DNA from: an uncultured Candidatus Rokubacteria bacterium
GTDB lineage: Bacteria; Methylomirabilota; Methylomirabilia; Rokubacteriales; DASRDR01
Length of the DNA: 64,000 nt
NCBI GenBank assembly: GCA_963708025.1
Contig: CAVPSB010000018.1
Coordinates: forward strand, 32,001 to 96,000
Direction: 5' to 3'
In this document: positions 11,632 through 40,341 of the stretch, piece after piece
Layout: each line of letters starts with the position of its first letter
Position numbering within the stretch: the stretch's first letter is position 1
Translations under genes and position numbers: made by a program
The notes under the pieces: generated by a model
Told to the model about the DNA's origin: nothing
The model's input: the letters and a program-made list of their open reading frames with translations, nothing else
Databases searched by the model: none

Positions 11632-11679
11632 CCCGTCCGCCCCACCCGCCCGCCGCCGCGGGCGCGGGTCGGAGCCGCG

Positions 11680-12186: not shown

Positions 12187-13250
12187 CGGGGCTTCCGGGC
12201 GGTCGCGCGCCGGGCGATCCCGGGGCGCGCCGCTTCCTCGAGGGCTTCCGGGCGCGGCACGCCGCCGGCGTGGTGCGCGACGCGCTGGCCGCGCTCCGGA
12301 CGCTCAAGGTTCTCGTCATCGGCGAGGCGATCATCGACGAGTACCGCTACTGCGTGCCCCTGGGCAAGGCGCCCAAGGAGCCGGCCATCTCCTCGAAGCA
12401 CGTCCGGCTCGAACGTCACGCGGGCGGGGCCCTGGCGTGCGCGAACCACGTGGCCGGGTTCTGCGGCGCGGTCGACCTGGTGACCGGCCTCGGCGCCGCC
12501 GACCCTCAGGAGGCGTTCATCCGCGGCCGGCTCAAACCGAACGTCAGGCCGCGGTTCTTCGTCCGCGAGGGCGCCCCGACCATCACCAAGCGCCGTTACG
12601 TCACGGAGCCGCGGCTTCTCAAGCTGTTCGAGGTCGCCGAGATGGATGACACGCCCCTGCCCGCCGCCCTCGAGAACCAGATGCTCGCGCATCTCGAGGC
12701 GGCGCTGCCCGCGTACGACCTCGTCATCGTCGCCGACTATGGCCACGGCTTCCTCGGTCCGCGCACCGTGGACCTGCTCGCCGCGCGTGCCCGGTACCTG
12801 GCGGTGAACACGCAGGCCAATCCCGGGAACCTCGGCTTCCACGTGATCACGCGGTATCCGCGCGCCGACTACCTGTGCATCGACGAGGGCGAGGCCCGGC
12901 TCGCCACGCGCGACCGCTGGAGCCCGGTGGCGGTGCTGGCCAGCGCGCTGCGGGCGCGCGTCAAGTGCTCCGCGATGTCCGTGACCCTGGCTCACGAGGG
13001 GGTACTGGTGTCGGGTCCGGATGGGACCGCGTGGGAGGTGCCCGCGCTCACGCGCGACGTCGTGGACCGGATGGGGGCGGGGGACGCGTACCTGGCGGTC
13101 TCATCCCCGTGCGCGGCCGCCAGGCTGCCCCTGGAGGTGGTGGCGCTGCTGGGCAGCGCGGCGGGCGCTCTGGCGGTGCGGATCGTCGGCAATCGCTCGG
13201 CCGTCGAGCCTGCCGCCGTCGAGCGCCTCCTCGCCGAGCTGCTGCCCTGA
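12183..13250 (+). CDS. PfkB-family sugar kinase (RfaE domain I/HldA-like)
   Basis: VLVIGEAIIDEY, VIVADYGHG, VVDRMGAGDAY. Confidence 0.88.
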   Translation: MTGLPGGRAPGDPGARRFLEGFRARHAAGVVRDALAALRTLKVLVIGEAIIDEYRYCVPLGKAPKEPAISSKHVRLERHAGGALACANHVAGFCGAVDLVTGLGAADPQEAFIRGRLKPNVRPRFFVREGAPTITKRRYVTEPRLLKLFEVAEMDDTPLPAALENQMLAHLEAALPAYDLVIVADYGHGFLGPRTVDLLAARARYLAVNTQANPGNLGFHVITRYPRADYLCIDEGEARLATRDRWSPVAVLASALRARVKCSAMSVTLAHEGVLVSGPDGTAWEVPALTRDVVDRMGAGDAYLAVSSPCAAARLPLEVVALLGSAAGALAVRIVGNRSAVEPAAVERLLAELLP

Positions 13251-13269
13251 GACCGCGCGAGGAGCATGC

Positions 13270-14226
13270 ATGCCGCACGTGAGCGTCGCGATCTCGACCT
13301 GGAACCGGGCCCACCTCGTGGGCCGGGCCATCCGGAGCGCCCTGGCCCAGACGTTCGAGGATTTCGAGCTGCTCGTCGTCGACGACGGGTTGACCGACGC
13401 CACACCCGAGGTGCTGGCGGGCGTGGACGATGGGCGTCTTCGCCGGGTCCGGCACGAGCGGAACTACGGGGTCAGCCGCACGCGGAACACCGCGCTCGGG
13501 CTGGCTCGGGGCGAGTGGCTGGCCTACCTCGACGACGACAACGAGTGGGCACCGGACTACCTCGAGCGACAGCTCGCCTTCGCGGCGTCGCGGCCCGGGG
13601 CCGGCGTGGCGTACTGTCGCGCGCGCCAGCGCCACGCGCCGTCCGGCTCGGAGGTCGAGCGCGGCGAGCTGAGGCAGGGTCGGGTGTTCTGCGACCTGGT
13701 AGAGGGATGGAACCCGTTCGTGTCGAGCGCGCTGATCCGCCGGGCGGTTCTGCTCGAGGCCGGCGGGTTCGACGAGCGGCTGCGCGCCTCGGAGGACCAC
13801 GACCTCTGGATGCGCCTGGCGCAGCGCACGGAATTCGCCGGTGCGAGCGACGCGCTCCTGATCCGCCACGTGCGCCATGGCCCCCAGCTTACCTACAACC
13901 CCGAGTTCCATGCTCGGGACACCGCCATCCTCGCCGGGAAGTGGCGGGACGCCATCACGGTGGCGTGCGGGCGCCGGGCCTATCGGCGCTGGCAGCTGTG
14001 GCTGGTGCTGTGGGCGGAGCGGTGCCGCGTGGAGCGCGCGGCGGAGCGCGGCGGGGGGGAGCGCGTCGCCGCCGCGCGCTCGGCCGGACGGCTGCTCCGG
14101 CTCTTCCCCGAGTCGGCGCCGCACGTGGCCGAGGCGCTTGGCGTGGCGATCCTCGGCTCGCGGAGCCGGCTCAGCTGGTATCGCTACCGCGCGCGCAAGG
14201 CCCTGGGCCTGTCCGCGACTCGCTGA
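13270..14226 (+). CDS. Glycosyltransferase family 2
   Basis: VSVAISTWNR, VVDDG, RNTAL, YLDDD, GGFDE..SEDHDLW. Confidence 0.92.
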   Translation: MPHVSVAISTWNRAHLVGRAIRSALAQTFEDFELLVVDDGLTDATPEVLAGVDDGRLRRVRHERNYGVSRTRNTALGLARGEWLAYLDDDNEWAPDYLERQLAFAASRPGAGVAYCRARQRHAPSGSEVERGELRQGRVFCDLVEGWNPFVSSALIRRAVLLEAGGFDERLRASEDHDLWMRLAQRTEFAGASDALLIRHVRHGPQLTYNPEFHARDTAILAGKWRDAITVACGRRAYRRWQLWLVLWAERCRVERAAERGGGERVAAARSAGRLLRLFPESAPHVAEALGVAILGSRSRLSWYRYRARKALGLSATR

Positions 14227-14245
14227 GCGGTCCCCGCGCCCGGAC

Positions 14246-14305
14246 ATGACCACCGAGGTCCGCGTCGCGCTGATCGGCTACGGCCTGGCCGGCGCGGTCT
14301 TCCCA
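14246..14305 (+). pseudogene. N-terminal stub of Gfo/Idh/MocA oxidoreductase
   Basis: MTTEVRVALIGYGLAGAVF, then unrelated sequence. Confidence 0.7.
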
Positions 14306-14399
14306 CGCACCCACGATCGCGGCCACGGCGGCGCGCGTCGTCGATCGAGTTTCAGGCGCCGGGTGGGGTAGCGTGGGACCTGAGGAGTCGAACGAGGCG

Positions 14400-14501
14400 G
14401 TGAGCGGTCGGGACGTCATCACGTGGCTGGTCGGCTTCATGGTGGTCGGCGTGATCGTCTGGTCGGTCACCGCGTGGGTCTCCGGCCGCCAGCGCCCGTG
14501 A
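14400..14501 (+). CDS. Small single-TM peptide (33 aa)
   Basis: MSGRDVITWLVGFMVVGVIVWSVTAWVSGRQRP; purine-rich RBS-like sequence upstream. Confidence 0.4.
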   Translation: MSGRDVITWLVGFMVVGVIVWSVTAWVSGRQRP

Positions 14502-15170
14502 CGCTGGAGGGTCAGCTCAAGGCCGCAGCCGAGGCGGGGGCAGCGGGTCATGGCGCCACCGGCCGCTGGCCGACCCGCCAGCCTTGATCGCGCGGGTGGT
14601 CAAGCTGGACCACGCCGTCTGGTGGCCGCGTCGCGAAGCCGCCAGAGACTACGACGCCTTGCCCTTCGAGGCGGGAGAGACGCACCATAGCCCGCGCGAT
14701 GCGGCACCACCACCAACGCAGCAGCCGCGCAGCTAACTGCCCGGGTTTTCGACGCTTCCGGTTGGCATAGCGGTTGCTCGTCTCGTAGTGGGGCCCGGCG
14801 ACCAGCACGACTGGTTCCCTGAGGGCGCCGTGGACCTTCGTTGCGCAGGAGGTAGGAGGTCGGGATGAGCAGGGTTTCGCCGAACGAGTCATCCTCTCAA
14901 TGGTCACCATCCTGGGAGTCTCGCTGGTCGGGAGCGGGTGGGCCCCAAGTGATCATGTTCAGATCGGACGATCGACACTGGTGGGCCACATTCATCCGCT
15001 GGCTTGCGACCGGATTCGCCTGAGTGGGTCATGGGTTCGAGCCGCCACGCCCGGCGGCCGTCGCCCGCCGTCGCAAACCATCACCTTTGCGCCAGCACAG
15101 GGGGTCTGGCCGGAGGGGGCGTTTGGCGGGGAGTTGAGGGCCTGCCTGCCGCGAGGATTTGCGACGGCCC

Positions 15171-15445
15171 CTACCGAACGGCCAGGGCCCGACTCACGGC
15201 ACTGGGATGGACGTGGAGCGCCCGGGCGACCGCCCGGAGCGAGAGCCCCCCGCTGAGCAGCTGACGCGCGGCATCTGCCGCCACATGGTAGCGGCGCGGA
15301 CGGCCGAGCCTCCGGCGCTGTGCTCGTGCTCGTCGGATCCCAGCCACCACCCGCTCACGGATCAGATCCCGCTCGAACTCCGCGATAGCCGCCAGCACGT
15401 GGAAGAGCAGGCGGCCGGCCGGGGTCGTCGTGTCGATGGTCATGG
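15171..15445 (-). pseudogene. Serine recombinase (resolvase/invertase) C-terminal fragment
   Basis: IDTTTPAGRLLFHVLAAIAEFERDLIRERVVAG..GRP plus HTH; catalytic Ser region missing. Confidence 0.9.
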
Positions 15446-15460
15446 TCCCTTGCCTCCGAG

Positions 15461-15587
15461 AAGGCGTCGTCAGGGAATAAGTGACCGGTTCCAAGGGCCA
15501 AGCGGATAGACTGCGAGTGCCGATTCTCGGCCTCCCCGGACACGCTGGACTCAGATGATTCGTTCACTTATTTCCTGACACCGCCTT
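15461..15587. repeat. 24-bp imperfect inverted repeat pair enclosing 79 bp
   Basis: AAGGCGTCGTCAGGGAATAAGTGA (15461-15484) vs reverse complement of 15564-15587, 21/24. Confidence 0.7.
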
Positions 15588-15881
15588 AGGTCCCGTCACT
15601 CTGGCCAGCGGTACCACAGGACGTGCGCGCCTCGCCTGCGGGTTCACCGTGAGCTCCTCCGGACCATGGCCCGACGCTACCGCCGGAAGGCTGAACGCAA
15701 GTTGGCGGTCGAGCGGCCGGGTCTCTCCTAGCCTCGTCCACATTTCGGCCCTCCTGCTCGAGTCCGGCCCGCCAAAGTAGGCCGGCCGCCTCCCCGGCCT
15801 CGTCGGCCAACATTTCCCCTCGTAACACTACCGCGTTCGCCGTTCTCGCCGTGCCACTCTACGCGCACACGGAGGGGAACA

Positions 15882-16064
15882 ATGATGCAGACAAAGACAT
15901 GGACCCAGCTCTACACCGTGCGCGAGATTGCCCAGGCGACGCGGCTCAGCGAGCGCGCGATCCGTATCGCCATCGCGGACGGCCGCCTCCGGGTTCTGCG
16001 GCCTGGGGGGCTGCGCCGCGTGCGGGTCAGCGAGCAGGAGCTCCAGCGGTTCATCAAGGCGTAG
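15882..16064 (+). CDS. Excisionase-like HTH_17 DNA-binding protein
   Basis: LYTVREIAQATRLSERAIRIAIADGRL...RVRVSEQELQRF; RBS GGAGGGG. Confidence 0.88.
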   Translation: MMQTKTWTQLYTVREIAQATRLSERAIRIAIADGRLRVLRPGGLRRVRVSEQELQRFIKA

Positions 16065-16066
16065 CC

Positions 16067-16162
16067 ATGAGGGGTCGCATGATCTGGCGCGTGCTCGCGG
16101 CCCTCGGCCTGCTCCTGCTGGCGGCGCTCGGCGGCGTAGGGCGCGTGCGGGGCAGGGCGTGA
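16067..16162 (+). CDS. Small hydrophobic peptide (31 aa)
   Basis: MRGRMIWRVLAALGLLLLAALGG..., 2 bp after xis stop. Confidence 0.4.
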   Translation: MRGRMIWRVLAALGLLLLAALGGVGRVRGRA

Positions 16163-16198
16163 GCCCCGATCCCTCGCCCGGCACGGTCCGACGCGATC

Positions 16199-16435
16199 CT
16201 AGGGGCCGGAACGGCGCGCTGGCCGGAGTCTGGAGGAGCGCCGCGTGGCGGAGACGACGATGTGAGCGGTCCGCGTCGAGTCGCCGGCCTGATCCCAGGC
16301 CACGGTCACGAACTGGCCGACCTCGAGGCCCATCAGCAGCCCCAGGGCATCGAGTTGGTAGGTGATCCTCGCGACCCGGATGGTTTGCGCCGCGACGTCG
16401 ATCGCCTCGAGGGTGCCGATGGTCAAGCCGTGCAT
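16199..16435 (-). CDS. Small hypothetical protein, beta-rich/OB-fold-like
   Basis: GTLEAIDVAAQTIRV...GLEVGQFVTVAW pattern. Confidence 0.45.
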   Translation of the reverse strand: MHGLTIGTLEAIDVAAQTIRVARITYQLDALGLLMGLEVGQFVTVAWDQAGDSTRTAHIVVSATRRSSRLRPARRSGP

Positions 16436-16558
16436 GATGGGAGCCTCACGGCCCGCCCGTGAGGAAGAAAGCCCAGCGCCAGGCCGAGGGGGATCAGCCC
16501 CCCGATGATCGCGGCGGCTTCGTGGAGAGTCTGCCATCCCATCCCGTTGACGAGTGGG

Positions 16559-16780
16559 TCAGGCGGCGGCGGCTTCGGGGTTGCCTCGTGTGTCGGTTCG
16601 CTGGAGCTCTTGGAGGGCCAGCTTCAGCTCCAGTTGGGCTCGTTCGATGTCACCGCCCGCTTCCCGGGCACACGACCGAGCCGCGCCGGCCAGGTAAATG
16701 ACGCGATTCAGACTGCCCTCGGCGTTGCGAAGCGCCTCGATCGCGCGAACGATGCGAGCGGCCGTGGCCGTCGTGTTCAT
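16559..16780 (-). CDS. Small helical hypothetical protein
   Basis: ATG with RBS GGGGAGGG; 73 aa amphipathic helices. Confidence 0.5.
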   Translation of the reverse strand: MNTTATAARIVRAIEALRNAEGSLNRVIYLAGAARSCAREAGGDIERAQLELKLALQELQRTDTRGNPEAAAA

Positions 16781-17252
16781 GAGGCCCTCCCCTGTGTGGC
16801 TCCAGTGAGCGACGAGACGACCCGAGCCGGAAGAGAGCCGCGTGGGAGGCGCTCGGGTTCCAAGGGAGAATCGGGCTCCCCCGGAGATCGCCCCCCACGC
16901 GGACCCGGCCTTGTGGAACGCAAGCGGCATGCCCAGCCGCCCCGTTGCTCGGAACGTTGTTGGAGTGGGCCGCCGGGCCAGGGCTTTTCCGGGCCGGCGA
17001 GGGCGGTGCCCGCCGGGATCCCCTGTGCACGTCGTTGCTGACAGTGACCAATCCGGCGGTCAGGGACTTGAAAGGCGGCGGTCGTTCCGACACCCCGGTG
17101 GGCGGCTCACCTCCGGCGCGGTTGGGGAGCCGTAAGCGGCCCGTAGGCGGGCTTTCCAGGCTGGAGGTGCGCCGGCTCGCTCTGACGGCCATTCAGTTGG
17201 GCCAGCGCGGCCGGGCGGCGCTCCGGGGGCGGGCCAATGGGGCGGCCGGGCG

Positions 17253-18822
17253 GTGAGAGCGCGGACGGCCCCCCGGGCCGAGACGCGAGAGAGCGTCGCC
17301 CGATTCTTTGATGCGCTCTTCGCTAGCGCTCGCGGGCTGATAGAGCTGCGCGCCTTCCCGAGCAAGTCGCGGCTGTTCGCCCCACTCGACGCACCGGAAC
17401 GCCTTCTCGACTTCCTCGCTGAGCGCGTGCCCGGCGAGGACGTGTACTTCGGGGTCGCGGCGCGGAAGGATGCGACCAGCGGGGCACTGGAGAACTGCAC
17501 CACGCTCGGCGCGATCTTCACCGACATCGACTTCAAGATGACCCCCGAGGCCGAGGCCCGGCGCCGGCTGGCCGAGTTCCCGCTCGCCCCAACGCTCATC
17601 GTCCGGTCCGGGCACGGCCTGCATGCCTACTACTGCCTCCGCGAACCGCTCGACCTCACAGCCGACGCGGCTCGCGCCCGCGCGATCCTGGTCGGCCTGG
17701 CGGCGGCCCTCGGAGGCGATCGGAGCGCGGCCGAGCCCGCCAGGATTCTCCGCGTGCCCGGCACCGTGAACCGAAAGGCGGAGCCGGTTCCCGTGGCGCT
17801 CGAGTTGTGCGAGCCGACGCGGCGCTACAACCCGTCGGAGCTGGAGGAGTGGCTTCCTGCGCTCGAGACAGCACGCGGGAACGGGTTTCATGCCGAGCCC
17901 GCCGTCGGCGTAGGAGAGCGGCACCTCTACCTGTATCGACTCGCCCGATCGCTGAAGTACAAGGGCCTGGGTCTGGCGGTTGTCCTGGCGGCGACCCGGG
18001 CCGAGAACGCGGAGCACTGCGCGCCGCCCTTGCCGGATGGCGAAGTCGAGCGACAGGTACAGAGCGCGTTCGCCCAGGCGGACCGCCCCGGGTTCGAGCC
18101 GCGGGACATCCGTGTGGAGACGGACAGAACCCCGGCGGGGCCGGCGGCCGCCGGGCCGGAGTGGCCGGTGCTGGCGCCAGAGGCGCTCCACGGACCGGCC
18201 GGGCGCATCGTGGAGGCCATCGCGCCGCGCTCCGAGGCTGACCCGGTCGCGATTCTTCTGCACACCCTCGTCGGGGCCGGGAGTCTCCTGGGGCGCGGAC
18301 AGCGCCAGCCTTGCGTTGCTCGCCGACGAGCCGCGCGGCGTCGTCACCACGGCCCGCGACCTCGGACGGATGACCCGCGATCCCGAGGCCGCCGCCGCCT
18401 GGCGGGATGTCTACGCCGACCTCTCCCGGGAGCGCGACGGGCTGGTGGGCGCCCTCCTCGGCCGCGCCGAGGCCCAGACCCTCCGGCTGTCCGTGCTCTA
18501 TGCCGTGCTCGATCAGTCCCCGGCGATCCGGCTCCCTCATCTGCAAGCCGCCCTGGCCGTGTGGGCCTACGCGGAGGCCAGCGTGCTCTACCTCTTCGGC
18601 GGCCGGCTTGGACACCCCATCGCCGACGCGATCCTCGACGCCCTCCGGCGAGCCGGCCGGCTCACCCGCACCGAGATCCGCGACCTCTTCGGTCGGCACA
18701 AGGACGCCGCGCAGCTCGAGGAGGCCCTCAGCATGCTTGAGCGCGCCGGCCTCGCGCGACCGGACAAGCGACTGACCGGAGGCCGGCCGGAAGAGTCCTG
18801 GGAGGCAGTACGGACTACGTAG
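17253..18822 (+). pseudogene. AEP/RepB-type primase-PriCT-1-DUF3987 helicase fusion with internal deletion and frameshift
   Basis: DVYFGV, FTDIDF, RSGHGLHAYY, RILRVPGTVN; GERH..PPLPDGEV; EADPVAIL; C-terminal HLQAALAVWAY and wHTH in another frame after about 18300. Confidence 0.82.
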
Positions 18823-18888
18823 CCCGGGCCGCGGAGGCCGCCAGGCGCTGGCGTGAGGCCCAAGGGCTCCCGCCGGCGGGCTCCGCCC

Positions 18889-18915
18889 TTCCGTCGCTTT
18901 CGTCTCTTCCGTCGC
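18889..18915 (+). repeat. Triple 9-bp tandem repeat, candidate iteron/origin
   Basis: TTCCGTCGC TTTCGTCTC TTCCGTCGC just downstream of the primase-helicase. Confidence 0.45.
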
Positions 18916-18934
18916 CTACACAAAGCAGCGGAAT

Positions 18935-19363
18935 AAGAACGACGAAGGCCGCGTCGTCTACCTGACCCCGGAGCTCCGGACCCTCCTCGAGGCCCAGCTC
19001 GAGCGGATCCGTGCGGTCGAGCGGCGGACCGGCCGCATCATCCCCTTCCTGTTTCCCTACCTCAGCGGACCGCGGCGCCTCGGCCAGCGCCGACGTGACT
19101 ACCGGAAGGCCTGGGAGGCGGCGTGCACGTCCGCGGGCGTCGCTGGTCGGGTCCGCCACGACTTCCGCCGGACCGCAGTCCGCAACCTGGTCAACGCTGG
19201 TGTGCCAGAGCGGGTGGCCATGACGATCACCGGGCACAAGAGCCGAGCCGTGTTCGACCGCTACCACATCGTGAGCCCGGGCGACCTCCAGGAGGCCATG
19301 CGAAAGCTCGCGGGCACGTTTCCGGGCACGTTGGCCCCCGCGATTGGCCCCCGCGAAGGTTGA
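18935..19363 (+). pseudogene. Tyrosine integrase C-terminal fragment, paralog of 27725-28570
   Basis: KNDEGRVVYLTPEL...RHDFRRTAVRNLVNAGVPERVAMTITGHKSRAVFDRY (no start, absent from ORF track). Confidence 0.92.
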
Positions 19364-19476
19364 CCGTCTCGTTCGAAGCGGCGTGAGCCGCTGGCCCTCG
19401 ACCAAGGCGCGCCGCGTCCTGGCCGCTCTGCTCCGGATCGGCTGGTCCGTGAGGAGGCAATCGGACTCCCACCGAA
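19361..19476 (+). repeat. Second partial hicB-hicA copy (116 bp, homologous to 3790-3905)
   Basis: TGACCGTCTCGTTCGAAGCGGCGTGAGCCGCTGGCCCTCG...CTCCCACCGAA, few substitutions. Confidence 0.9.
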
Positions 19477-19570
19477 GCACACCCGGGAAGGGTGACGTCA
19501 CGGGAACCCGTTTGATACGGGGAGGGAGCCTGGCGGGCCTCGCCGAGGCCGCCGCCGGGACGGCCCGCCG

Positions 19571-19936
19571 CTACTCGATGGGCAAAGCACGACGCCGGAT
19601 GTGCCGCCGATCGACGACGACGATCGACCCCTCGAGGTCCAGCGCCGGAGTCTGCGTCAACACGCGATCGAGCAGGCCGAGCATCTCGGCATCCGAAAAC
19701 GCGCCCCCGCGGAACAAGATGATGCCAGGGCGGCTGGCCCCGTGGAGCGCCAGAAGCCGAGGGTAGTCGAGATCTGCAGTGATGATGACTCGCTCTTCAC
19801 GCCGCGCCACGTCGAGAAGCTGGGTGTCGGCGGCTCGAGCCAGACCGATCTCGTCGGCGTGGACCGCGTCATGACCGGTGGCCCGCAGATGCCTGACGGT
19901 CAGGGGCGTGACCGGCATGTTGACCAGGAACTTCAA
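19571..19936 (-). CDS. DUF5615 PIN-like toxin (VapC45-like)
   Basis: MKFLVNMPV, GHDAVH, D.QLLDVARREERVIITADLDY, RRALP. Confidence 0.88.
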   Translation of the reverse strand: MKFLVNMPVTPLTVRHLRATGHDAVHADEIGLARAADTQLLDVARREERVIITADLDYPRLLALHGASRPGIILFRGGAFSDAEMLGLLDRVLTQTPALDLEGSIVVVDRRHIRRRALPIE

Positions 19937-20157
19937 CCGGTCAGCTCGATAATCTCGTCTTCCGCCAGGCTCGCGGCATATCGCAGAGCCTCGTCAATGT
20001 CGGCCGCTTCGAGATACGGATAGGCGCGAAGGATCTCCTCGCGGCTCTGGCCGCTGGCCAGCAACCCGAGCAGACGTGAGACGGGGAAGCGCAGATCCCG
20101 GATGCAGGGCTTCCCGGTGCAGACATCAGGGCGCGCCGTGATCCGCGTGAACGTCAT
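19933..20157 (-). CDS. DUF433 antitoxin
   Basis: RITARPDVCTGKPCIRDLRFPV...EILRAYPYLEAADIDEALRYA; overlaps the toxin start. Confidence 0.92.
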   Translation of the reverse strand: MTFTRITARPDVCTGKPCIRDLRFPVSRLLGLLASGQSREEILRAYPYLEAADIDEALRYAASLAEDEIIELTG

Positions 20158-20308
20158 GTTCCCTCGGGCTCCTAGTGTACCTTGAAACGCGGCCATGCGT
20201 TCACAAGGCTTGGCTTCTCGGCGCGCGTCGTCCAGGCGCACGAGCCCGAGCTCCTCGGAAGCGATGCTCGTCTGGCCGGGTCGAATCGATGAATCACGAG
20301 AACGGAAC

Positions 20309-21037
20309 GTAGGAAATGCTAGCGACGTTTTTCTCGCCCTCTCCCTGGCCCCGCATCCCCTCGCTCTCGCCTTGGCCCCCGCAGCCCGACTGGAGCGCCG
20401 CGCCGGCCCGCGCGGCAAGGGCGTTCGGAGGTCGGAGCGGTGGCGCGGAAGCCGCCCGGCGGGGTCGGCAGGCGGACAGGGGAGGGGCCGGGCGGGGGGG
20501 CCGGCGGATCGGGGGGCGCGCGGGTCAGGCGGCGGGGACGGCGTGGCCCGGCGGCGGCTGGGCGGCGAGCCCCAGCGCCGCCAGCAGCCGCCCCACCGCG
20601 TGGGGCTCCGTCACCGCCCCGAGGACCCGGCGCGGGCCCCCGCACCGCTCACACACCAGCACCTGGATGGCGAACACTCGGCGGAGGAGCCGAGCCCAGG
20701 TCCACCGCCCCGGTGACCGCGCGCCTGCGTCCGCGCCAGGGTCGTCAGGGGTGGGCCGCACCACGATCGCGGATCGCCATTGGGCACGCGGGGCGAGGAG
20801 TCCATGGTAGGCGAGCAATGGCCGGCGCGGCGGGGGCACGAGGGCGGCCAAACGCTCCAACCACTCCAGCGGGTCCAGGAGCAGCGCCGTCGCCCCATCG
20901 CTCCACGGACGTCTGAACTCGTAGAGCAACTGCCCGTCCGAGCTCTCCGTCAGGCACTCGAGTGCCAGGGGCGGGCGCAGGATGGAGCGGCACACCGTCT
21001 CCAGTTGATCCCGGCGGCGCGCCGGCACGGCCAGCCC
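20309..21037 (-). mobile_element. IS91-family (HUH/Y2) element remnant, copy 1: transposase C-terminus plus oriIS end
   Basis: RRPWSDG, LDPLEWLERLAALVPPP, YHGLLAP, WARLLRRVF, CERCGG; end ...GCATTTCCTAC next to GTTC. Confidence 0.85.
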
Positions 21038-21356
21038 CTCCGTTGGGGTCGGCGGCCACCCAGGTTGCCCGCACCTGCACCTCGGGGCGGAAGCTGCGCT
21101 CCCACAGGAGGATCCCGGCGGAGCTGAATTTCCGGGTCAGCACGACGCCGTTCACGTAGGTGTCGCCGACGGAATAGACGTTCTCGAAGCGGTCGATGTT
21201 CATCATCCTGCCGCCGAAATTCGGGGCGGTCGCTTCCCAGACGACCTCCACCGCGGGCGTCGAGGTTTGCGCCAGCGCGCCTGGCGTTACGGCAACGAGA
21301 AGCAGCAGGGAGCACAGAACGCCGCGGAGAGCGGTGGTTGCGGAACGAGGTTTCAT
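21038..21356 (-). pseudogene. N-terminal fragment of secreted beta-propeller-like protein
   Basis: Signal peptide ..GALAQ; NVYSVG..LTRKFSSAGILLWER; fused to the IS91 remnant. Confidence 0.6.
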
Positions 21357-21486
21357 GGAGTCACCTTTCTTCCCCCGCCCATTTTGGGGGTTATGAGGCG
21401 TGGCACCTGAGACTAATCGTCGCGCAACGCGATGATTGGGCGTTTGATCCCTGTCAACCTGTCGACGGATATCTGCGGTACAAGTC

Positions 21487-22621
21487 CTAAAGGATTTTCT
21501 CGCCGAACCTGCGCAAGGCGTTCTCGGACAAGGTGAGGCCAAGCCCAGGCTGTTCCTTGAGCCTGAGCATCCCATTCCTGATTGCGGGCGGATCCTCGAA
21601 CAGCTCCGCCTGCAGCGGGTCGCGCTCGGGGTCGGTGAACGACTCGACGATGAGTCCGGCCGGGCTCGCGGCGACGATGTGCGCGTGGATGAAGCAGTCG
21701 TGGTGCGGGGCCACGTGCACGTGGTTGAGCTCGCACAGCGCGGCGAGCTTGCGGCCCTCGGTGAAGCCGCCCATCATGGTGCAGTCGAACTGCAGGATCT
21801 GGATCGCCTCTTCCTCGAGAAGCGCGCGGCAGGCGTAGCTCGTGAGCTCGCTCTCGCCCGCCGAAAGCGGGATGCGCGTCTTCTGCGCGAGGAGCTTGAG
21901 CTCCCTGCGGTCGTCGGCCCAGCGCACCGGCTCTTCGAGCCAGCGCGGGCGCGAGCGGCTCGAGCAGGCGCGCGCCTTCGATGGCGGTGGCGAGGTCCCA
22001 GCCCCGGTTCACGTCGATCATCAGGTCCTTGTCCGCGCCGATGACCTCGCGCACCAGGGCAAGACGCTCCATGTCCTCGGCGAGCGGGGCGCCGCCGGCC
22101 TTGGCCTTGAATCCGGTGTGTCCCTGCGACTTGAGCATCTGCATCTCGTCGCGCAGCTCCGACAGCGTCTTGCCGTCGCGGTAGTAGGCGCAGGTGACGT
22201 AGCACGGGACTTCGCTGCGGTAGCCGCCGAAAAGGCGATAGAGCGGCAGCTTCGCCACCTTTCCGACGAGGTCCCAGCAGGCGATGTCCACGGCGGCGGA
22301 AATGCGGATGATGGCTTCGCGCGACCAGTCTTTCTCGCTCGCACGTCGCTGCCACGTAAGCGCGAACAGCTTCTGGTAGATCTGCTCGGGGGCGAGCGGA
22401 TCCATGCCGACGACGAGCTCGGCGATGCCGCTGCGGAAGGCGGCGATCGCCGCCTCGATCGGCGTATAGCTCGTGGCGATGCCGATGCCCTCGAGCCCTT
22501 CGTCGGTCTGCATGCGCACGAGGATTTCGTTGGCGCGCGGGACGATGAAATGGCTGACCCAGTGCGGGCGATCCTCCCGCGGCGCGCGCAGGATGTACAC
22601 CTGTAGGCCGGCGATCTTCAC
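21487..22621 (-). CDS. Mandelate racemase/muconate lactonizing enzyme family (one frameshift near 21945)
   Basis: SAVDIACWDL, FKAK, IDVN, (W)LEEP, SAGESE, PHH, PGLG across two frames. Confidence 0.88.
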
Positions 22622-22631
22622 GCGTTCTCCT

Positions 22632-23515
22632 TTAGAGTAGTCGCTGTTGCCGACGGCTGTACGCCATGCGGCCCGCCACGTACGTGGCCTTCACCGCGCG
22701 GTCGTCGCCCATCGTCATCTGGATGAACAGCGCCTCCTCGATGTCGCTGCAGGAGCGCATCCGGTACTCGATGACCGGGGTCGACTTGAGGTCGAGCACG
22801 ACCAGATCCGCTTCCATGCCGGGCGCGATGCTGCCGATCCGGTCCTCGAGGTAAAGGGACTGCGCGCCGCCGCGCGTCGCGCGGTAGAACGCATGCCCGG
22901 CGGAGAGAGGATTGCCGTTCAGCTGCGCGGCCTTGTAGGCCCCGTTGAGCGTCTGCAGCATCGAGAACGAGGTGCCTGCGCCCAGGTCGGTGCCGAGGCC
23001 CACGCGCACCGGACGCTCGGGCTTCTTCGCGTTCTTGAGGTTGAACAGACCGCTGCCAAGGAACGCGTTCGACGTGGGGCAGTGCGCGAGCGCGGTGCCG
23101 GTCTCGTGGCAGCGCGCGAGCTCGGCCTCGGTGAGCCAGATGCCATGGCCGAAGATCGCGCGGGGGCCGAGCTGCTGGTAGTGGTCGTACGTGTCGAGAT
23201 AGCCCTTGCGCTGCGGGTACAGCTGCTTCACCCAGGCGACCTCGCCTCGGTTCTCGGAGACATGCGACTGCAGGTAGGTGCCGGGGTGCTCGCGCCACAG
23301 CGCGCCGGCGAGCTCCATCTGCTCGGGCGTGCTGGTGGGCGCGAAGCGCGGCGTCACGCTATAGAGCGCGCGGCCCCTGCCGTGCCATTTGCGGATCAGC
23401 GCCTTCGCTTCGTCGTAGCCCTTCCTCGCCGTGTCGGTGAGCGCGGCCGGGGCGTTGCGGTCCATCAGGACCTTGCCGGCGACCGTGCGCATGCCGAGCG
23501 CCTCGGCTTCCGAAC
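22632..23515 (-). pseudogene. guaD: Guanine deaminase, 5' part removed at the IS91 junction
   Basis: GKVLMDRNAP, TPRFAPT, QSHVSEN, HCPTSNAFLGSG, GTDLGAG, GDDR; N-terminal HxH missing. Confidence 0.9.
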
Positions 23516-23715
23516 GTAGGAAATGCTAGCGACGTTTTTCTCGCCCTCTCCCTGGCCCCGCATCCCCTCGCTCTCGCCTTGGCCCCCGCAGCCCGACTGT
23601 AGCGCCGCGCCGGCCCGCGCGGCAAGGGCGTCGGGAGGTCGGAGAGGTGGCGCGGAAGCCGCCCCGCGGGGTCGGCAGGCAGACGGGGGAGGGGCCGCGC
23701 GGGGGGGCCGGCGGA
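23516..23715 (-). mobile_element. IS91-family oriIS end, copy 2 (non-coding, 200 bp)
   Basis: Near-identical to the first about 200 bp of 20309 copy; abuts GAAC at 23512-23515. Confidence 0.85.
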
Positions 23716-23776
23716 GCGACGATAGTGCGATCGTCGGCGCCGGCCCCGGAGCCGGACGCCAGCGAGGGAGACGGCG

Positions 23777-24837
23777 ATGGAGCAGACGCTCGACAAGCAG
23801 CGGACACAGGAGTTCGCCCGGAAGCTCTTCGGGCTCTACACGAGCGGCATCCTCACCCTGATGGTGGACATCGGCCACAAGACGGGTCTCTTCGAGGCGG
23901 TGGCGTGCGGCCGGGGGACCAGCCGGGAGATCGCCGAGCGTGCGGGGCTCGAGGAGCGCTACGTGCGCGAGTGGCTCGGGGCGATGGCGACGGGCGGCAT
24001 CGTCGAGTACGCGGCGGCGTCGCGGACGTTCACGCTGCCGCCCGAGCACGCCGTCTGCCTGACCGGCACCTCGAGCCGTAACCTCGCCGCCGGCAGCCAG
24101 GGCCTCCTGATGCTCGCCAAGCGTCTGCCCCGGGTCGTCGAGTGCTTTCGCCGGGGCGGCGGCGTCCCCTACTCCGAGTTCCGGCCGGACTTCACCGAGG
24201 CGATGGACGCCTCCTGGCGTCTCCTCTACGACGGGCTCCTGATCAAGGGCTTCCTGCCGGCCGCCAAGGAGCTGCCCGAGCGGCTACAGGCCGGCATCCG
24301 GGCTCTGGACCTCGGCTGCGGGACCGGGCACGCGATCAACCTCATGGCCCGCGAGTATCCCCGCTCCACCTTCGTCGGCTATGACCTCGGCGAGGATGCG
24401 ATCACCCGCGCCCGGGCCGAGGCCCAATCGCTGGGACTCGGGAACGCTCGCTTCGAGGTCCGGGACGTGGGGCGGTTGCCCGCCGAGCCGAAGTTCGATC
24501 TGATCACGTCCTTCGACGCCATCCACGACCAGCGCGATCCGGCGGCGGTTCTCCGCTGTGCGGCGGACGCCCTCGCCCCCGACGGGGTTTACCTCATGGT
24601 CGAGCCGAAGGCCTCGAGCAACCTCGAGGAGAACATCGGTAACCCCTTCGCCCCCTACCTCTACGGGATGAGCGTGCTCCACTGCATGACGTGTCCCTCG
24701 CCGAGGGCGGGGCGGGGCTCGGGACGGCGTGGGGCGCAGAGACGGCGCGCCGGATGCTGGAGGAGGCCGGCTTCACGTCCATCGCCGTGGTGGACGCGCC
24801 CGGTCCCCAGAACAGCATCTACATCTGTCGCCGCTGA
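23777..24837 (+). CDS. Class I SAM methyltransferase with N-terminal winged helix (Rv2258c-like; frameshift near 24690)
   Basis: ERYVREWL, LDLGCGTG, FDAIHD, HCMT(V)SLAEGGAGLGTAWG. Confidence 0.88.
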
Positions 24838-24838
24838 G

Positions 24839-26495
24839 CTAGCCCGGGGCCGCGCGCTTGCGCGCCTCCTCCTGGTGGCGGAGCTCGACCCGGCGGATCT
24901 TGCCGCTGATGGTCTTCGGCAGCTCGCGCACGAACTCGATCTCGCGCGGGTACTTGTAGGGCGCCGTCACCCGCTTGACGTGCTCTTGCAGTTCCTCGGC
25001 GAGCCGGGGCGATGGGTCGTGGCCCGGGGCCAGGATCACGAAGGCCTTCACGACGCTGCCGCGCATGGGGTCGGGGCTGGCCACCACGGCGGCCTCGGCC
25101 ACGGCCGGATGCTCGACCAGGGCCGACTCCACCTCGAAGGGTCCGATGCGGTAGCCGGCGCTGATGATCACGTCGTCGGCCCGCCCGACGAACCAGAAGT
25201 AGCCGTCGGCGTCGCACCGGGCCCGGTCGCCGGTGACGTACCAGTCGCCGCGGAAGCAGCCGGCCGTGGCCTCCGGGTTCCGCCAGTACTCGCGAAAGAG
25301 CCCCACCGGACGCTCGGGCTTCGACGCGCACGGCGATGTCGCCCTCGGCATCGGGCGCCGCCGCGCGGCCCTCGTGGTCGATCACCGCGACGTCGAAGCC
25401 CGGCATCGGCTTGCCCATCGAGCCCGGCTTGACGGGCAGGCAGCGATAGTTGCCGACGAGCAGCACGGTCTCGGTCTGACCGTAGCCGTCGTAGATCGTC
25501 AGCCCGGTGCCCTTCTTCCACGCCTCGATGACCTCAGGGTTGAGCGGCTCGCCGGCGCCGACGCAGTGGCGGAGCTTCGGCAGCCGGAAGTGGCGGAGGT
25601 CCTCCAGCACCATCATGCGATAGGCGGTGGGAGGCGCGCAGAAGGTGGTCACCCCGTGCCGCTCGAGGAGGGTGAGGCAGCGCTTGGCGTCGAACTTTCC
25701 CCGATCGTCCACGATCAGGAGGGCGGCGCCCATGCGCCAGGGGCCGAAGAGGTTGCTGTAGGCCGCCTTGGCCCAGCCGGTGTCGGAGAGGTTCCAGTGC
25801 AGATCGCTGGCCGAGAGGTCGAGCCAGTACTTTCCCGTGAGCCGGTGGGCGAGGCCGTAGGACGCTTGCGTGTGGAGCACCATCTTGGGCCCGGCCGTCG
25901 TGCCCGAGGTGAAGTAGACCATCAGGGGGTCGTCGCTCCGCGTCTTCTCGAGCACGATCTGGGAGGGGGCCGCCCCCATGGTCGCGTCGAAGCTCTCCCA
26001 GCCCGCGCGGGTGCCGCCCACGAGCAGGAGGCGCTCGAGCGTCGGGCACTGGGCGCGGGCTCGCTCGACGGTCTCGGCGCTCTCGGGGGTGGTGATCGCC
26101 AGCTTCACGCTGGCGCTCTTCACACGGTAGGCGATGTCCTTCACCGTGAGCAGCGTGGTCCCGGGCATGGGGACGGCCCCGAGCTTGATGAGCCCGAGCA
26201 GGATGACGTGCCACTCGGGCAGGCGCGGCATGATGACGAGCACGCCGTCGCCCTTCTTGATGCCGAGCGCGCGGAGGACGTTGGCGCAGCGGTTCGACGC
26301 GTCGCGGAAGTAGCCGAAGCTGAGCCGGCGCTCCTCGCCGTCCTGGCCCACCCAGAGCATGGCCAGCTGGCCGGGATCCTCGCCGGCCCAGCGATCCACC
26401 ACGTCCTGGGCGAAGTTGAAGCGCTCCGAAACTTCCAGGCGGCAGACGCGTCGCTCGTGCTCGTAGTCGGTCATGTTCGGCGGCGGGTTTGCCAT
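24839..26495 (-). CDS. Medium-chain acyl-CoA synthetase (ACSM-like; frameshift near 25322)
   Basis: [45 protein letters not shown]. Confidence 0.9.
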
Positions 26496-26610
26496 CACCG
26501 TCCTCCTGCGGGCCGCGGCCCGCTTTCGACGACCGCCCATCCGATCCGGCGGGGCTCACCGCGGCCCGCCCTGCGCGCCGATGGTCCGCTGTACGGGGTT
26601 CGGGAGCTGA

Positions 26611-26928
26611 TCACTCGAGAAGCACGTCGGCACGACCCAGGATGGAAGGGGGAATGGAGAGACCGATGGCGCGTGCGCTTCTCAGGTTCACGACCAGCTC
26701 GAAGCGTGTCGGCTGCTCGATGGGCAGGTCCGCGGGCTTGGCGCCCTTGAGAATCTTGTCGACGAAGGAGGCCGTCCGATAGAACTGGTCCTGGAGGTTC
26801 GACCCGTACGACATGAGCCCGCCCGCTTCGACCGCTTCCCTGAACCCGTATATCGCCGGCAGTCGCTGCTTCGTCGCGAACTCCAGGATCTTCGCCCGGT
26901 TGCGGCCGGTGACGAGAACGACGAGAAC
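26611..26928 (-). pseudogene. C-terminal fragment of ABC substrate-binding protein (ABC_sub_bind type)
   Basis: RLPAIY..GGLMSYG..VDKILKGAKPADLPIEQPTRFELVVNL; cut at the IS91 junction. Confidence 0.9.
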
Positions 26929-27377
26929 GTAGGAAATGCTAGGAACCTAGGAAATGCTAGCGACGTTTTTCTCGCCCTCTTCCTGGCCCCGCATCCCCTC
27001 GCTCTCGCCTTGGCCCCCGCAGCGCGACTGTAGCGCCGCGCCGGCCCGCGCGGCAAGGGCGTCGGGAGGTCGGAGCGGTGGCGCGGAAGCCGCCCCGCGG
27101 GGTCGGCAGGCAGGCGGGGGAGGGGCCGGGCGGGGGGGCCGGCGGATCGGGGGGCGCGCGGGTCAGGCGGCGGGGACGGCGTGGCCCGGCGGCGGCTGGG
27201 CGGCGAGCCCCAGCGCCGCCAGCAGCCGCCCCACCGCGTGGGGCTCCGTCACCGCCCCGAGGACCCGGCGCGGGCCCCCGCACCGCTCACACACCAGCAC
27301 CTGGATGGCGAACACTCGGCGGAGGAGCCGAGCCCAGGTCCACCGCCCCGGTGACCGCGCGCCTGCGTCCGCGCCAG
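26929..27377 (-). mobile_element. IS91-family remnant, copy 3 (duplicated terminal 18 bp)
   Basis: Near-identical to 20309-20738; GAACGTAGGAAATGCTAG-GAACCTAGGAAATGCTAG. Confidence 0.85.
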
Positions 27378-27590
27378 CCGAGCCCTTCCCGCCGCGGATC
27401 TTGATCGGCGGCACCACCAGCAGGAACTCGTAGACGCCCGCCGCCGCCAGCCCCTCCAGCCGGAAGTTCTCGATGATGAAGATCCCGTGGTCGGCGATCA
27501 GCAGCATGTGGACCGGGAAGACCTGGAATACCGGCGTGAAGACGACGGGCGGCCGCTTCTCGAAGGTCAGGGTGTCGGGGGCTAGCCAAC
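27378..27590 (-). pseudogene. Cyclase/kynurenine formamidase family C-terminal fragment
   Basis: FPVHMLLIADHGIFIIENFRLEGLA..YEFLLVVPPIKIRGGKGS. Confidence 0.8.
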
Positions 27591-27724
27591 ACAATGCCCC
27601 TTCTCAGCCATGGGCCCCCGGGCGGGGGCCGGCCGGCTGGGACGACATCGCGGTGGGCGTGACGGCCCCGCTGGTGGCACTCGCCCTGGGCGGCCTGCGT
27701 CGACAGGCTCCGGTGGGTCCGCGG

Positions 27725-28570
27725 CACTACCGCGTGAAGCACCTCGAGCGGTTCTTTGCCGGACGGCGCGTCGCGAGTCTCGGCCAGGCTGAGGTGGATG
27801 CCTACATCCTGGCGCGACACCGGCGGGGCGCGGCCGCCGGGACGATTCGCCGCGAGCTCGGCACGTTGGTCAAGATGCTGAGGCTGGCGTACACGGCCGG
27901 GAAGCTGGTCAGGCTGCCGGTGCTCGAGAAGCCCAAAGAGGGGGCCCCGCGCGAAGGGTTCTTCGAGCGCGAGCAGTACGAGGCGGTGCGGCAGCACCTC
28001 CCGGCCGATCTCCAGCTGGCGACGGCCATCGCCTACACCTACGGCTGGCGGACGCAGAGCGAGGTCCTCATCCTCGAGCGCCGTCAGCTGGATCTGGAGG
28101 CGGGCACGCTCCGGCTGGACCCGGGACAGACGAAAAACGACGACGGTCGCCTCGTCTATCTCACCCCCGAGTTGAAGACGCTCCTGGGCGCGCAACTCGA
28201 GCGGATCCGAGTGGTGGAGCGGCGAGCCGGGCGCATCATCCCGTATCTGTTTCCCTATCTGGGTGGCGCGCACCGCCTCGGTCAGCGTCGGCGGGACTAT
28301 CGGAAGGCGTGGGTCACGGCGTGCGAGAAGGCCGGGGTGGTGGGGCGCGTCCGCCACGACTTCCGGCGGACCGCCGTCCGCAACATGGTGAACCGCGGGG
28401 TGGCCGAGCGGGTCGCCATGACGATCACGGGCCACAAGACGCGCAGCGTGTTCGATCGCTACCACATCGTGAGCCCGCGCGAGCTCGAGGACGCGGCCCG
28501 GCGGCTCACGGGCATAGTTTCGGGCATAGTCCGGGCGGCGGACGTTGACAGCCGCCGCCTGACCCCGTAA
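27725..28570 (+). pseudogene. int: Tyrosine integrase of island A, N-terminal arm-binding region missing
   Basis: Catalytic set GWRT, TKND, HDFRR, GH, DRY; upstream part of ORF 27473-28570 is unrelated (antisense cyclase). Confidence 0.92.
28508..28531 (+). repeat. Putative arm-type site inside the integrase 3' end
   Basis: Identical to 3488-3511. Confidence 0.8.
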
Positions 28571-28573
28571 TTT
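28545..28573 (+). promoter_or_regulatory. Sigma70 promoter of intact tRNA-Val, overlapping the integrase C-terminus
   Basis: TTGACA-17bp-TAATTT; TAA 28568-28570 is the integrase stop. Confidence 0.85.
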
Positions 28574-28583
28574 ACTTAGGCAC

Positions 28584-28659
28584 GGGCGGATAGCTCAGCG
28601 GGGAGAGCGCAGCCCTTACAAGGCTGAGGTCGCAGGTTCGAGCCCTGCTCCGCCTACCA
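28584..28659 (+). tRNA. tRNA-Val(TAC)
   Basis: 76-nt cloverleaf: GGGCGGA/TCCGCCT, D arm GCTC/GAGC, CAGCC-CTTACAA-GGCTG, GCAGG-TTCGAGC-CCTGC, encoded CCA. Confidence 0.97.
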
Positions 28660-40122: not shown

Positions 40123-40299
40123 CGGATCACCGCTCGCTCCCGGACAGTACTCTCTCGATTTCGGTGAGGCCGTCCGGTCGGAAGGGAACACTGTGTCAAC
40201 CAGTGGCCGACGTCTACCGGGTTTGCAGGGTGAGGGCTGGCAGCGTGGCGTGGCAGCGAACTGGTAACTGGCCGACTCCTGAAGGTGTGTCTACCCCCG

Positions 40300-40341
40300 T
40301 TACAAGGCTGGGGTCGCAGGTTCGAGCCCTGCTCCGCCTAC
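40300..40341 (+). pseudogene. 3' half of tRNA-Val(TAC), right attachment site of island B
   Basis: TTACAAGGCTGGGGTCGCAGGTTCGAGCCCTGCTCCGCCTAC, one mismatch to the intact gene, no CCA. Confidence 0.92.

Follow-up and report, generated by a model that had tools for sequence, protein, structure and literature searches.

The DNA analysed here (the window) is a stretch of 64,000 nucleotides with 71.8% G+C, corresponding to G000:C18:32001-96000 in an 8.17-Mb assembly of 49 contigs from an uncultured Candidatus Rokubacteria bacterium; positions are those of the window unless a contig is named. Near its middle, the 3′ end of a tyrosine integrase gene (int) runs into the gene for tRNA-Val(UAC). Comparison with related sequences indicates that this junction is probably the right attachment site (attR) of an island of about 25 kb, decayed and no longer mobile, that was inserted in the anticodon loop of tRNA-Val(UAC) in the 'reversed' orientation, and that its integrase belongs to a large tyrosine integrase family whose attachment site starts inside the 3′ end of int. 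The assignment of putative arm sites and of a candidate promoter to this region is well supported by recurrence, co-variation and geometry, and from the same comparisons we infer promoter activity, Int binding and selective retention. The window holds a fossil of this system, with a degraded island and an int that no longer has its N-terminal domain.

The integrase open reading frame (27473..28570, on the forward strand, as is every feature of the two island junctions) matches PF00589 (Phage_integrase) with E 1.4e-11. Its catalytic residues R118, K146, H220, R223, H246 and Y255 are invariant in an alignment of 11 sequences whose first row is the window integrase. The gene is truncated N-terminally: homology to relatives begins near 27640, the N-terminal ~60–70 residues of full-length relatives are missing, and a copy of an IS91-like repeat (26942-27241) lies directly upstream. 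Translation ends in TGIVSGIVRAADVDSRRLTP, also given as DRYHIVSPRELEDAARRLTGIVSGIVRAADVDSRRLTP, before the stop codon. The int codons here (..TGIVSGIV..) hold the tandem repeat ACGGGCATAGTTTCGGGCATAGTC (28508-28531), the putative P arm, and a third, degenerate repeat unit, GGGCGGCGGAC (28533-28543), abuts the −35 hexamer of a sigma-70-type promoter-like site (28545..28573). This site is composed of TTGACA (28545-28550), a 17-nt spacer (28551-28567) and the −10 hexamer TAATTT (28568-28573), whose first three bases are the int stop codon TAA (28568-28570). The promoter-like site ends 10 nt, and int stops 13 nt, before the same-strand gene for tRNA-Val(TAC) (28584-28659; ARAGORN; Rfam tRNA score 69.6 bits; anticodon 28617-28619), the only intact copy found in the genome; transcription is expected to start near 28580, giving a 3–4-nt leader. 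An earlier account of the window, made from its letters alone (the sequence-only reading), had pointed to a 24-bp tandem repeat shared by the int tail and positions 3488-3511, and to a perfect TTGACA, a 17-bp spacer and a stop TAA opening TAATTT. The two 24-bp ACGGGCATAGTTTCGGGCATAGTC copies are indeed identical, the start of the first having been placed at most one base off, and the promoter elements agree base for base. GGGCATAGT occurs 18 times in the 8.17-Mb genome and forms a tandem of 12-bp period only at 28508 and 3488. This arrangement of sequences is far beyond chance.

The sequence-only reading had spoken of a host tRNA promoter. The promoter-like site is not the host's own: it is supplied by the island, and an earlier copy stands displaced at the left junction (attL), at 3304..3332 (TTGACA 3304-3309, N17, TAATTT 3327-3332). 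There, positions 3299-3385 are a 97% copy of 28540-28626 (87 nt), comprising the promoter-like site and the first 39 nt of the tRNA. The displaced tRNA-Val(TAC) 5′ half, on the chromosome side of attL (3343..3381), matches 28584-28622 and ends in CCCTTACAAG; as a query, bases 1-43 of the tRNA matched C18:35343-35385 at 98%. Identity between attL and attR stops within the anticodon loop, 5′ halves of Val, Lys, Asp and Arg tRNAs share an equal end point, and we infer that the loop (28615-28621) is the crossover core. The insert spans 3382-28622 (~25 kb), with the new promoter and the island-derived 5′ half (28584-28622) at its right end and the earlier ones pushed to its left end. As in reversed-orientation elements, the flanking direct repeat is the 5′ part of the tRNA, and the end of the island with int is the one that has the intact gene, in the same direction as int. 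The 'host' copy at attL itself looks like the relic of an earlier island, because an int-tail-like remnant, CGGGCGGCGGAC (3273-3284, 15 nt past the stop of a DctM-like open reading frame at 1717..3258), is retained before its TTGACA; the order is that of the int tail, but with an 18-nt insert between the two.

Beyond the displaced 5′ half, the island carries a candidate intrinsic terminator (3401..3440) with a perfect 12-bp G+C-rich stem (CCCCTCGGTAAG/CTTACCGAGGGG), a 7-nt loop and a UUUUUGUUU tail. Folding of 3382-3450 gave −40.1 kcal/mol (z −5.4), with 0 of 200 shuffles as stable; this terminator would end transcripts from the displaced promoter. It is followed by a P′-arm block (3447..3487; ttggctgg.gggggctgg.ttt.gggcc...) that is conserved in the Val, Lys and Asp islands, has GGGC every ~11 bp, and may contain degenerate arm sites or accessory-factor sites. 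The putative P′ arm, the non-coding tandem repeat ACGGGCATAGTTTCGGGCATAGTC at 3488..3511 (L049 in our numbering of loci), comes next. With the anticodon equivalent at 3376-3378, the first GGGCA of this repeat (3490) is 109 bp past the loop motif; at attR the P repeat lies 110 nt from the anticodon by its start and 87 bp by its end. The arm distances of 'about 85 and 105' in the sequence-only reading are close to these values of 87 bp (P end) and 109 bp (P′).

The same design recurs among relatives. Named relatives are metagenome-assembled genomes (MAGs) of Candidatus Rokubacteria or Methylomirabilota. The family comparison set consisted of 61 related genomes, with E<=1e-20 as the cut-off for integrase matches; the tallies over this set (integrase matches, repeat pattern, tRNA-Val matches) include genomes G055 and G038, and no locus-level claim uses either. 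An integrase match was present in 35 of the 61 genomes. Of 35 classified loci (L024 left out), 14 have a tRNA gene just past the int stop on the same strand, 11 have a convergent one and 10 have none. Eighty further loci, from named MAGs of Rokubacteria, Nitrospira, Binatia, Acidobacteriota, Desulfobacterota and other groups, divided into 14 same-strand, 37 convergent and 29 without a tRNA. Tandem repeats of 9–12 bp, mostly GGGCAC/TNNT variants, lie within or beside the last int codons in both orientation classes. The integrases of L012 and L014 are ~60% like that of the window in protein terms; their repeat nucleotides are 100% identical to those of the window, compared with 50–80% identity over most other parts of the aligned 420 nt of int.

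The repeat pattern GGGCAYRNTTYCGGGCAYRN had 50 matches in the 61 genomes and a reversed-pattern control had 0. Inspection of 40 of the 50 sites (30 + 10) revealed two recurring main contexts. Type P sites have the order int tail, repeat, ~25 nt, TTGACx-N17-(−10), ~9 nt, tRNA; counted from the repeat, the tRNA start is at +68 to +74 for 10 loci (Val, Met, Arg-TCT, Lys) and at +95 for one. Type P′ sites have the order tRNA 5′ half, ~12 nt, terminator hairpin, conserved block (cttggctggcgggggctggttt.gggcc...), repeat. In this second context the distance from loop to repeat was 107–109 nt in 17 of the 18 measured loci and 100 nt in the remaining one, and the hairpin was at the same place in the inspected loci, its T-run falling 61–63 nt before the repeat in 18 of 18 measured (the distance set gives 19 loci, one of them without the T-run pattern). 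A matched pair is seen on contig G012:C30, where a P′ site at 8988 is followed, 33.7 kb on and on the same strand, by a full-length int, a P repeat and tRNA-Asp; the cargo is metabolic, with no phage or conjugation genes found by Pfam. P′ modules also follow one another on a single strand: G010 has four in 26 kb (C8:3897543-3923479; L057, L183-L185) and G016:C17 has three in ~100 kb (L053, L068, L186). These are mostly a tRNA-Asp 5′ half, terminator, conserved block and repeat, and look like stacked island remnants; neither G010 nor G016 has an integrase match at E<=1e-20.

Distances from repeat to core are similar in the two orientations. Between tail-repeat start and anticodon, same-strand loci measured 105–113 nt (13/19), 130–135 nt (5/19) or 86 nt (1/19). 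Convergent loci measured 107–108 nt (3/21) or 128–138 nt (13/21), the other five being at 86, 119 and 145–177 nt; the four longest involve one tRNA-Leu and three tRNA-Sec genes, both of them long-arm tRNAs. The gap contains the promoter and 5′ half in the same-strand class, and the 3′ half and trailer in the convergent class. The fixed distances suggest that the repeat is positioned relative to the anticodon-loop core irrespective of what the gap contains, a placement that a P arm with a symmetric core would lead one to expect and that would explain how one family can face the tRNA gene either way. The two distance classes (~108 and ~130) differ by 21–22 bp, or two helical turns. The proposal that the 24-bp sites are P and P′ arms gains from this tandem design at fixed core distances in dozens of loci. 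The accompanying idea of a dual-function coding end fared worse: the overlap with the int tail looks incidental, as the int stop lies before or within the repeat array in some relatives (L006, L020 and several other loci).

Elsewhere in the genome, a search with the integrase protein gave nine matches, six of them C-terminal fragments. A full-length paralog (L002, on G000:C44; 459 aa) stops 17 nt before a same-strand tRNA-Arg(CCT), and its last codons contain CGTCAAGGTG twice. The only other genomic copy of this CGTCAAGGTG tandem is on another contig, where a tRNA-Arg 5′ half stops in the anticodon loop and the tandem follows ~115 nt later. This second island pairs its own repeat as the Val island does. 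An HTH_3 (Xre-type) domain is fused to the N-terminus of this paralog, before the conserved N-terminal domain. Before tRNA-Lys(TTT) stands an int fragment with two ACGGGCATAC copies; TTGACG-N17-CAGAAT comes after these and leaves 9 nt to the tRNA. Downstream of another fragment are TTGACA and, as we read it, a tRNA-Thr 5′ half only. Of the other int fragments, one precedes tRNA-Sec and one is convergent with tRNA-Asp. Decayed tandem repeats, some with the TAAGT motif, were also seen upstream of C48:4735 (tRNA-Arg TCT), C48:23614 (tRNA-Leu TAG) and C25:26010 (tRNA-Met), three places at which the protein search found no int. Integrase tails may be the origin of further tRNA promoters in this genome.

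The promoter-like site before tRNA-Val resembles those of other tRNA genes in the genome. TTGACN-N16-18-TAnnnT occurs 428 times on the two strands together and ends 5–25 nt before 9 of the 50 predicted tRNAs, against ~0.03 expected; the tRNA-Val site is one of the nine. The int-free tRNA genes (Gly, Leu, Gln, Ala, Met, Pro) have TTGACx-N16-18-TAxxxT ending 9–13 nt before the mature 5′ end. The sequence-only reading expected both the paired repeats and the promoter motif in homologous int 3′ ends. The repeats do recur, but TTGAC[ACT]-type sites in int tails are restricted to 10/28 same-strand loci, with 0/48 among convergent ones; looser promoter rules gave 12/28 and 8/48. Kinship inflates all of these counts. 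At several loci the int stop falls inside a hexamer, either as the TAA of the −10 (L001, L036, L037, L076, L077) or as the TGA of TTGAC (L005), as expected because a G+C-rich frame meets an A+T-rich promoter. A promoter within the int tail would be common, not universal, and some of the tRNAs in question may be transcribed by read-through from int. A further motif, CG(T/C)AAGT, recurs in islands with different target tRNAs, ~23 nt ahead of the tRNA gene (L002, L005, L012, L036, L037 and others), including places where no −35/−10 pair can be recognised; its counterpart in the spacer of the window site is 28564-28570 (CCGTAAT). It was tried as a −10 hexamer, as a core site and as a relic of stop-codon context, none of which suits every locus.

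That the host keeps the int 3′ end, as the sequence-only reading had suggested, is borne out by comparison in so far as int tails outlive the rest of int. We inspected 27 tRNA-Val(TAC) loci of relatives, two genomes being left out. A promoter-like site ends 5–12 nt before the tRNA at 16 of them, a paired repeat lies at −115 to −40 at 8 (compared with 4 of 1487 control windows), and the int catalytic motif is kept at only 2. In an alignment of 17 of these upstream regions, the two repeat units, GTTGAC, the spacer motif (cG.AA.Tccct) and part of the −10 are conserved, and the sequence between these elements diverges. Three loci (L041, L045, L046) have repeat, promoter and tRNA with no int. Among the integrase matches listed, C-terminal fragments outnumber N-terminal-only ones (~23 and ~7), an unclean comparison in that the catalytic end is easier to detect. 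Fragments among the classified loci were same-strand in 5 cases, accompanied by a tRNA 5′ half only in 1, and convergent in 2, and int open reading frames of at least 300 aa were split 9 to 9; these orientation numbers are too small to count.

Several results weigh against this interpretation. A sigma-70 scan of 27400-29000 with a threshold of 4/6 per hexamer listed no promoter. It was blank at 28545-28573 because the −10, TAATTT, is weak: it matches TATAAT at only 3/6 bases, with A2 and T6 present, next to a −35 that matches 6/6 and a spacer of 17. Even by the looser criteria, 16 of the 28 same-strand loci have no promoter-like site in the tail, among them L012, L014 and L070, which carry the identical GGGCATAGT repeat before tRNA-Asp. 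An RNA-library contig (X16, record 2) is continuous over 28467-28659, with six differences. These findings could be accommodated if the tRNA were produced by read-through of int or from farther upstream and released by RNase P, with TTGACA-N17-TAATTT unused, as could the int stop lying only 5–20 nt before the tRNA at several loci. We consider this account unlikely. The int gene is truncated after an IS91-like fragment and no int promoter is evident; L041, L045 and L046, which have no int, keep repeat, TTGAC-N17-(−10) and tRNA, and 16 of the 27 tRNA-Val loci have a promoter-like site; the window site agrees in position and form with the genome's int-free tRNA promoters; and TTGAC-type sites are confined to the same-strand class. 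The RNA data comprise 24 listed runs (at most 0.27 of sampled words), and the contigs, which as assemblies cannot show starts, ends or strand, were taken from four runs, three of them RNA libraries and the fourth of guessed RNA origin. All are short, come from relatives and are 90–99% alike. The X16 contig could be a relative's read-through RNA or DNA within the library; another joins the tRNA 5′ half (to 28621) to the terminator-like island end, and neither counts as evidence of transcription. Also on the negative side, a terminator pattern scan of 3000-4200 did not list 3401-3440; the related loci are kin, so that all counts overstate independence (L012/L014/L070 are near-duplicates, as are L076/L077); and some of the 'host' tRNA promoters used as a yardstick may themselves descend from such islands.

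Two other explanations address the origin of the repeats in place of the use of the promoter. One holds that the block of repeat and promoter is ancestral host DNA that the island copied, the int frame having extended into it and the repeats being host promoter-upstream elements. It would account for the block standing upstream of tRNA-Val(TAC) in many int-less relatives, and for the 97% promoter copy at attL. The repeats, however, also lie on the island side of attL, ~108 nt past the core, in non-coding DNA and with a conserved island terminator between. They occur in int tails before Met, Lys, Arg, Asp and Thr tRNAs as well as in convergent loci where no promoter follows, and they track the island, not the tRNA: GGGCATAGT is at Val here and at Asp in L012/L014, and CGTCAAGGTG is self-paired in the Arg island. 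We therefore regard a host origin of the block as quite improbable. That the tandem repeat merely reflects a peptide (G-x-x-S/P-G-x-x) needed in the integrase tail, with 3488-3511 a scrap of int, appears very improbable indeed. Here and in many relatives the repeat keeps the reading frame, encoding GIVSGIV, GTIPGTV or GMFSGMT, and scraps of int are frequent in this genome, as noted above. What lies upstream of 3488, however, is not int-like; it is the terminator-block module of at least 20 P′ sites. The relatives whose int stops before or within the array suggest that translation of the repeat is dispensable, and on either side the distance to the core is constant.

Binding of the arm sites would fall to the N-terminal domain of the integrase. 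Full-length relatives share a conserved N-terminal domain of ~55 aa (MGxIYxRGxxWWIKYYxNGKxxRES...A..LL..REG). A model of it built from 27 sequences has three beta-strands and a helix (predicted local distance difference test score, pLDDT, 81), and its fold is compatible with an arm-binding domain. In VIA-align, the comparison with 3jtz, the arm-type binding domain of the HPI integrase, gave Z 3.7 and a root mean square deviation of 1.8 Å over 49 residues with 24% identity, a score tied with those of unrelated folds. Lambda Int scored Z 3.6 and AP2 domains Z 3.0–4.2, none reaching Z 5, and these low, tied scores belong with the negative points above, as does the Pfam search, which found no arm-binding family for the domain (the best hit was DUF6538 with E 0.074). 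A profile of the domain gave nothing relevant against PDB sequences, and Foldseek with the model gave no match at E<=0.001.

Under the attR reading, the circular form of the island would carry, in order, the int catalytic domain, the P repeats in the last ~20 codons, a sigma-70 promoter, the tRNA 5′ half, the anticodon-loop core, an intrinsic terminator, the conserved block and the P′ repeats. The N-terminal domain of a full-length Int would bind both repeat pairs and bridge them to the core. Crossover in the anticodon loop would then give the tRNA gene an island-made 5′ half and promoter, and leave the old host promoter and 5′ half stranded at attL, where the island terminator would shut them off. 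The int frame would run through the arm sites until it met a stop within the A+T-rich promoter hexamers, here the TAA in the −10 and in relatives often the TGA in TTGAC. As the rest of int decayed, its tail would be retained, since it holds the promoter of the one tRNA-Val(UAC) gene in the cell. A wider proposal, which we hold tentatively and rate as possible at best, is that a fixed attP scaffold, with arms ~108 or ~130 bp on each side of the anticodon-loop core, faces the tRNA either way in Rokubacteria and neighbouring phyla, and that reversed integrations overwrite promoter and 5′ half so that, in what would amount to a promoter-replacement ratchet, essential tRNA genes come to have leftover int tails as their standing promoters. 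With the arm sites directly upstream of the −35, a live Int or excision factor could couple the state of an island to tRNA transcription, and tRNA-strength transcription across the core could gate excision. No such Int-based control can now come from the window copy, because its int is without the N-terminal domain.

The island is of a known kind, a reversed tRNA island with lambda-like arms. What appears to be new is the packed module of int tail, arm sites, promoter and terminator, found in both orientations, together with int tails that persist as tRNA upstream regions. The attP of Mx8 reportedly lies within int. Elements integrating by recombination with the tRNA 5′ part were reportedly described, under the term 'reversed target orientation', by Zhao & Williams (2002, J Bacteriol 184:859). 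Our literature search, whose reach did not extend to that paper, found no description of a tRNA promoter or of arm sites inside an integrase 3′ coding end. Reversed-orientation elements are cited from Zhao & Williams 2002 in PMC6563490, and are alike in that the element must supply the upstream region. Here, by comparison, the replacement promoter lies with arm-type repeats inside or against the coding tail of int, the displaced half is backed by a terminator, and a fixed scaffold serves a single integrase family in both orientations. Lambda-type heterobivalent integrases share the direct repeats on both arms ~100 bp from the core, the R-K-H-R-H-Y set and, in full-length members of the present family, a separate small N-terminal domain, with the tied fold-match scores given above. 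They differ in that here the putative P-arm sites fall in the last codons of int, both pairs are tandem, direct and ~108 bp from the core, and the core is a tRNA anticodon stem-loop. The nearest phage integrases, of Pseudomonas phage D3, vB_Pae_BR153a and Ralstonia phage RSA1, have ~28% identity; they are annotated tyrosine integrases that align over their full length (95–98% of 361 aa), whereas the islands here have metabolic cargo in which Pfam recognised no phage or conjugation genes.

Coupling between attachment sites and promoters has precedents. In KplE1 of E. coli (IntS/TorI), attL overlaps the intS promoter, and arm-type sites and those of the recombination directionality factor let Int and TorI repress it (Panis et al. 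2010, PMC2951348). Putative arm-type sites beside a candidate sigma-70 promoter are the counterpart here, and KplE1 is a precedent for the regulatory idea of the sequence-only reading, that Int or Xis bound at the repeats could modulate tRNA transcription. The KplE1 promoter, however, drives int while the tRNA keeps its own, whereas the promoter here would drive the tRNA, and the arm sites here are upstream of the −35 (about −72 to −37), not over the −10. Among the 1273 integrase–tRNA pairs of the same study the shapes termed SIT and OD together make up less than 8%, and the layout here is the rare 'SIT' shape. The pTN3-like integrases of Thermococcales (Cossu 2017; Krupovic & Bamford 2008, via PMC8371274) also target the tRNA 5′ half, and the rebuilt tRNA again depends on an element-borne promoter. 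Those archaeal 'suicidal' integrases are split by integration, with the tRNA said to be expressed from the integrase promoter; here int is unsplit and has a dedicated promoter-like site at its 3′ end. ICEKp1 (PMC13023037) shows state-dependent promoter switching, the host tRNA-Asn promoter driving int. It likewise couples tRNA and int transcription through an att junction, with a terminator-like structure limiting read-through, but its polarity is opposite to that here, where an island promoter would drive the tRNA.

The usual explanation of tRNA-gene integration is that the element restores the 3′ end and the host promoter stays in charge. In keeping with it, bacterial recombinant tRNA genes are described as retaining their original promoter with very few exceptions in PMC8371274, which cites the framework of Williams 2002 (NAR). 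The islands studied here would represent the opposite solution in a conserved and compact form: arm sites, replacement promoter and 5′ half are placed between the int catalytic domain and the core, and a terminator would silence the stranded promoter. An active promoter would mean that mobile islands rewrite how essential tRNA genes are transcribed and that integrase fragments are kept by a selection unrelated to recombination, which would explain many 'integrase C-terminal pseudogenes' beside tRNAs; island finders that expect a 3′ tRNA fragment would then miss or misplace such islands. The scaffold used in both orientations would also offer a concrete model for integrases changing target polarity.

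The body of the island (3512..27472) is a decayed mosaic. It includes a HicA-like gene, a sigma-54 activator fragment, a gene like those of nonribosomal peptide synthetases with AMP-binding and peptidyl carrier protein (PCP) domains, an IS110 transposase, sugar-nucleotide and glycosyltransferase genes, a second int fragment, and several truncated metabolic genes, with further fragments of a permease, an enolase-family gene and an amidohydrolase. A repeat of at least 300 nt is present in three copies (20304-20603, 23511-23810, 26942-27241) that are 76–97% identical and overlap IS91/Y2_Tnp-like fragments. Each adjoins truncated genes, the last being the copy just upstream of the truncated int. 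The second integrase C-terminal fragment (18857..19363, forward strand; L003) has 74% protein identity, is followed by no tRNA part, and has its own tandem repeat, GGGCACGTTTCCGGGCACGTT, at 19312-19332. The tandem GGGCACGTT in its region (18857-19476) is also found in an int fragment at C18:458028. The fragment runs straight into a copy of the hicA-like region (94% to 3790-3905), a junction that suggests recombination between stacked islands.

To the right of the tRNA-Val gene, a displaced tRNA-Val 3′ half (40297..40341, forward strand) begins at the anticodon loop and is 96% identical to 28613-28657 (query bases 30-74 at C18:72297-72341). It would mark a second island (28660-40296), in the usual orientation and with the same core, and it suggests that both halves of the present tRNA-Val gene may be island-derived. 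This second island contains pieces of a P-type ATPase pseudogene, a two-component system, cytochrome b561 and DUF1924, and no integrase; a tandem TGGCAGCG repeat with a 12-bp period lies ~40–60 nt before 40297. Farther on, palindromic repeats rich in G/C homopolymers (CCCCCTCCCC...GGGGGAGGGG) and ending in GGCGGGAGGTCCCGAA occur at 48653-48733, 51971-52019, 55906-55977, 57652-57722 and 61660-61730, all apparently intergenic.

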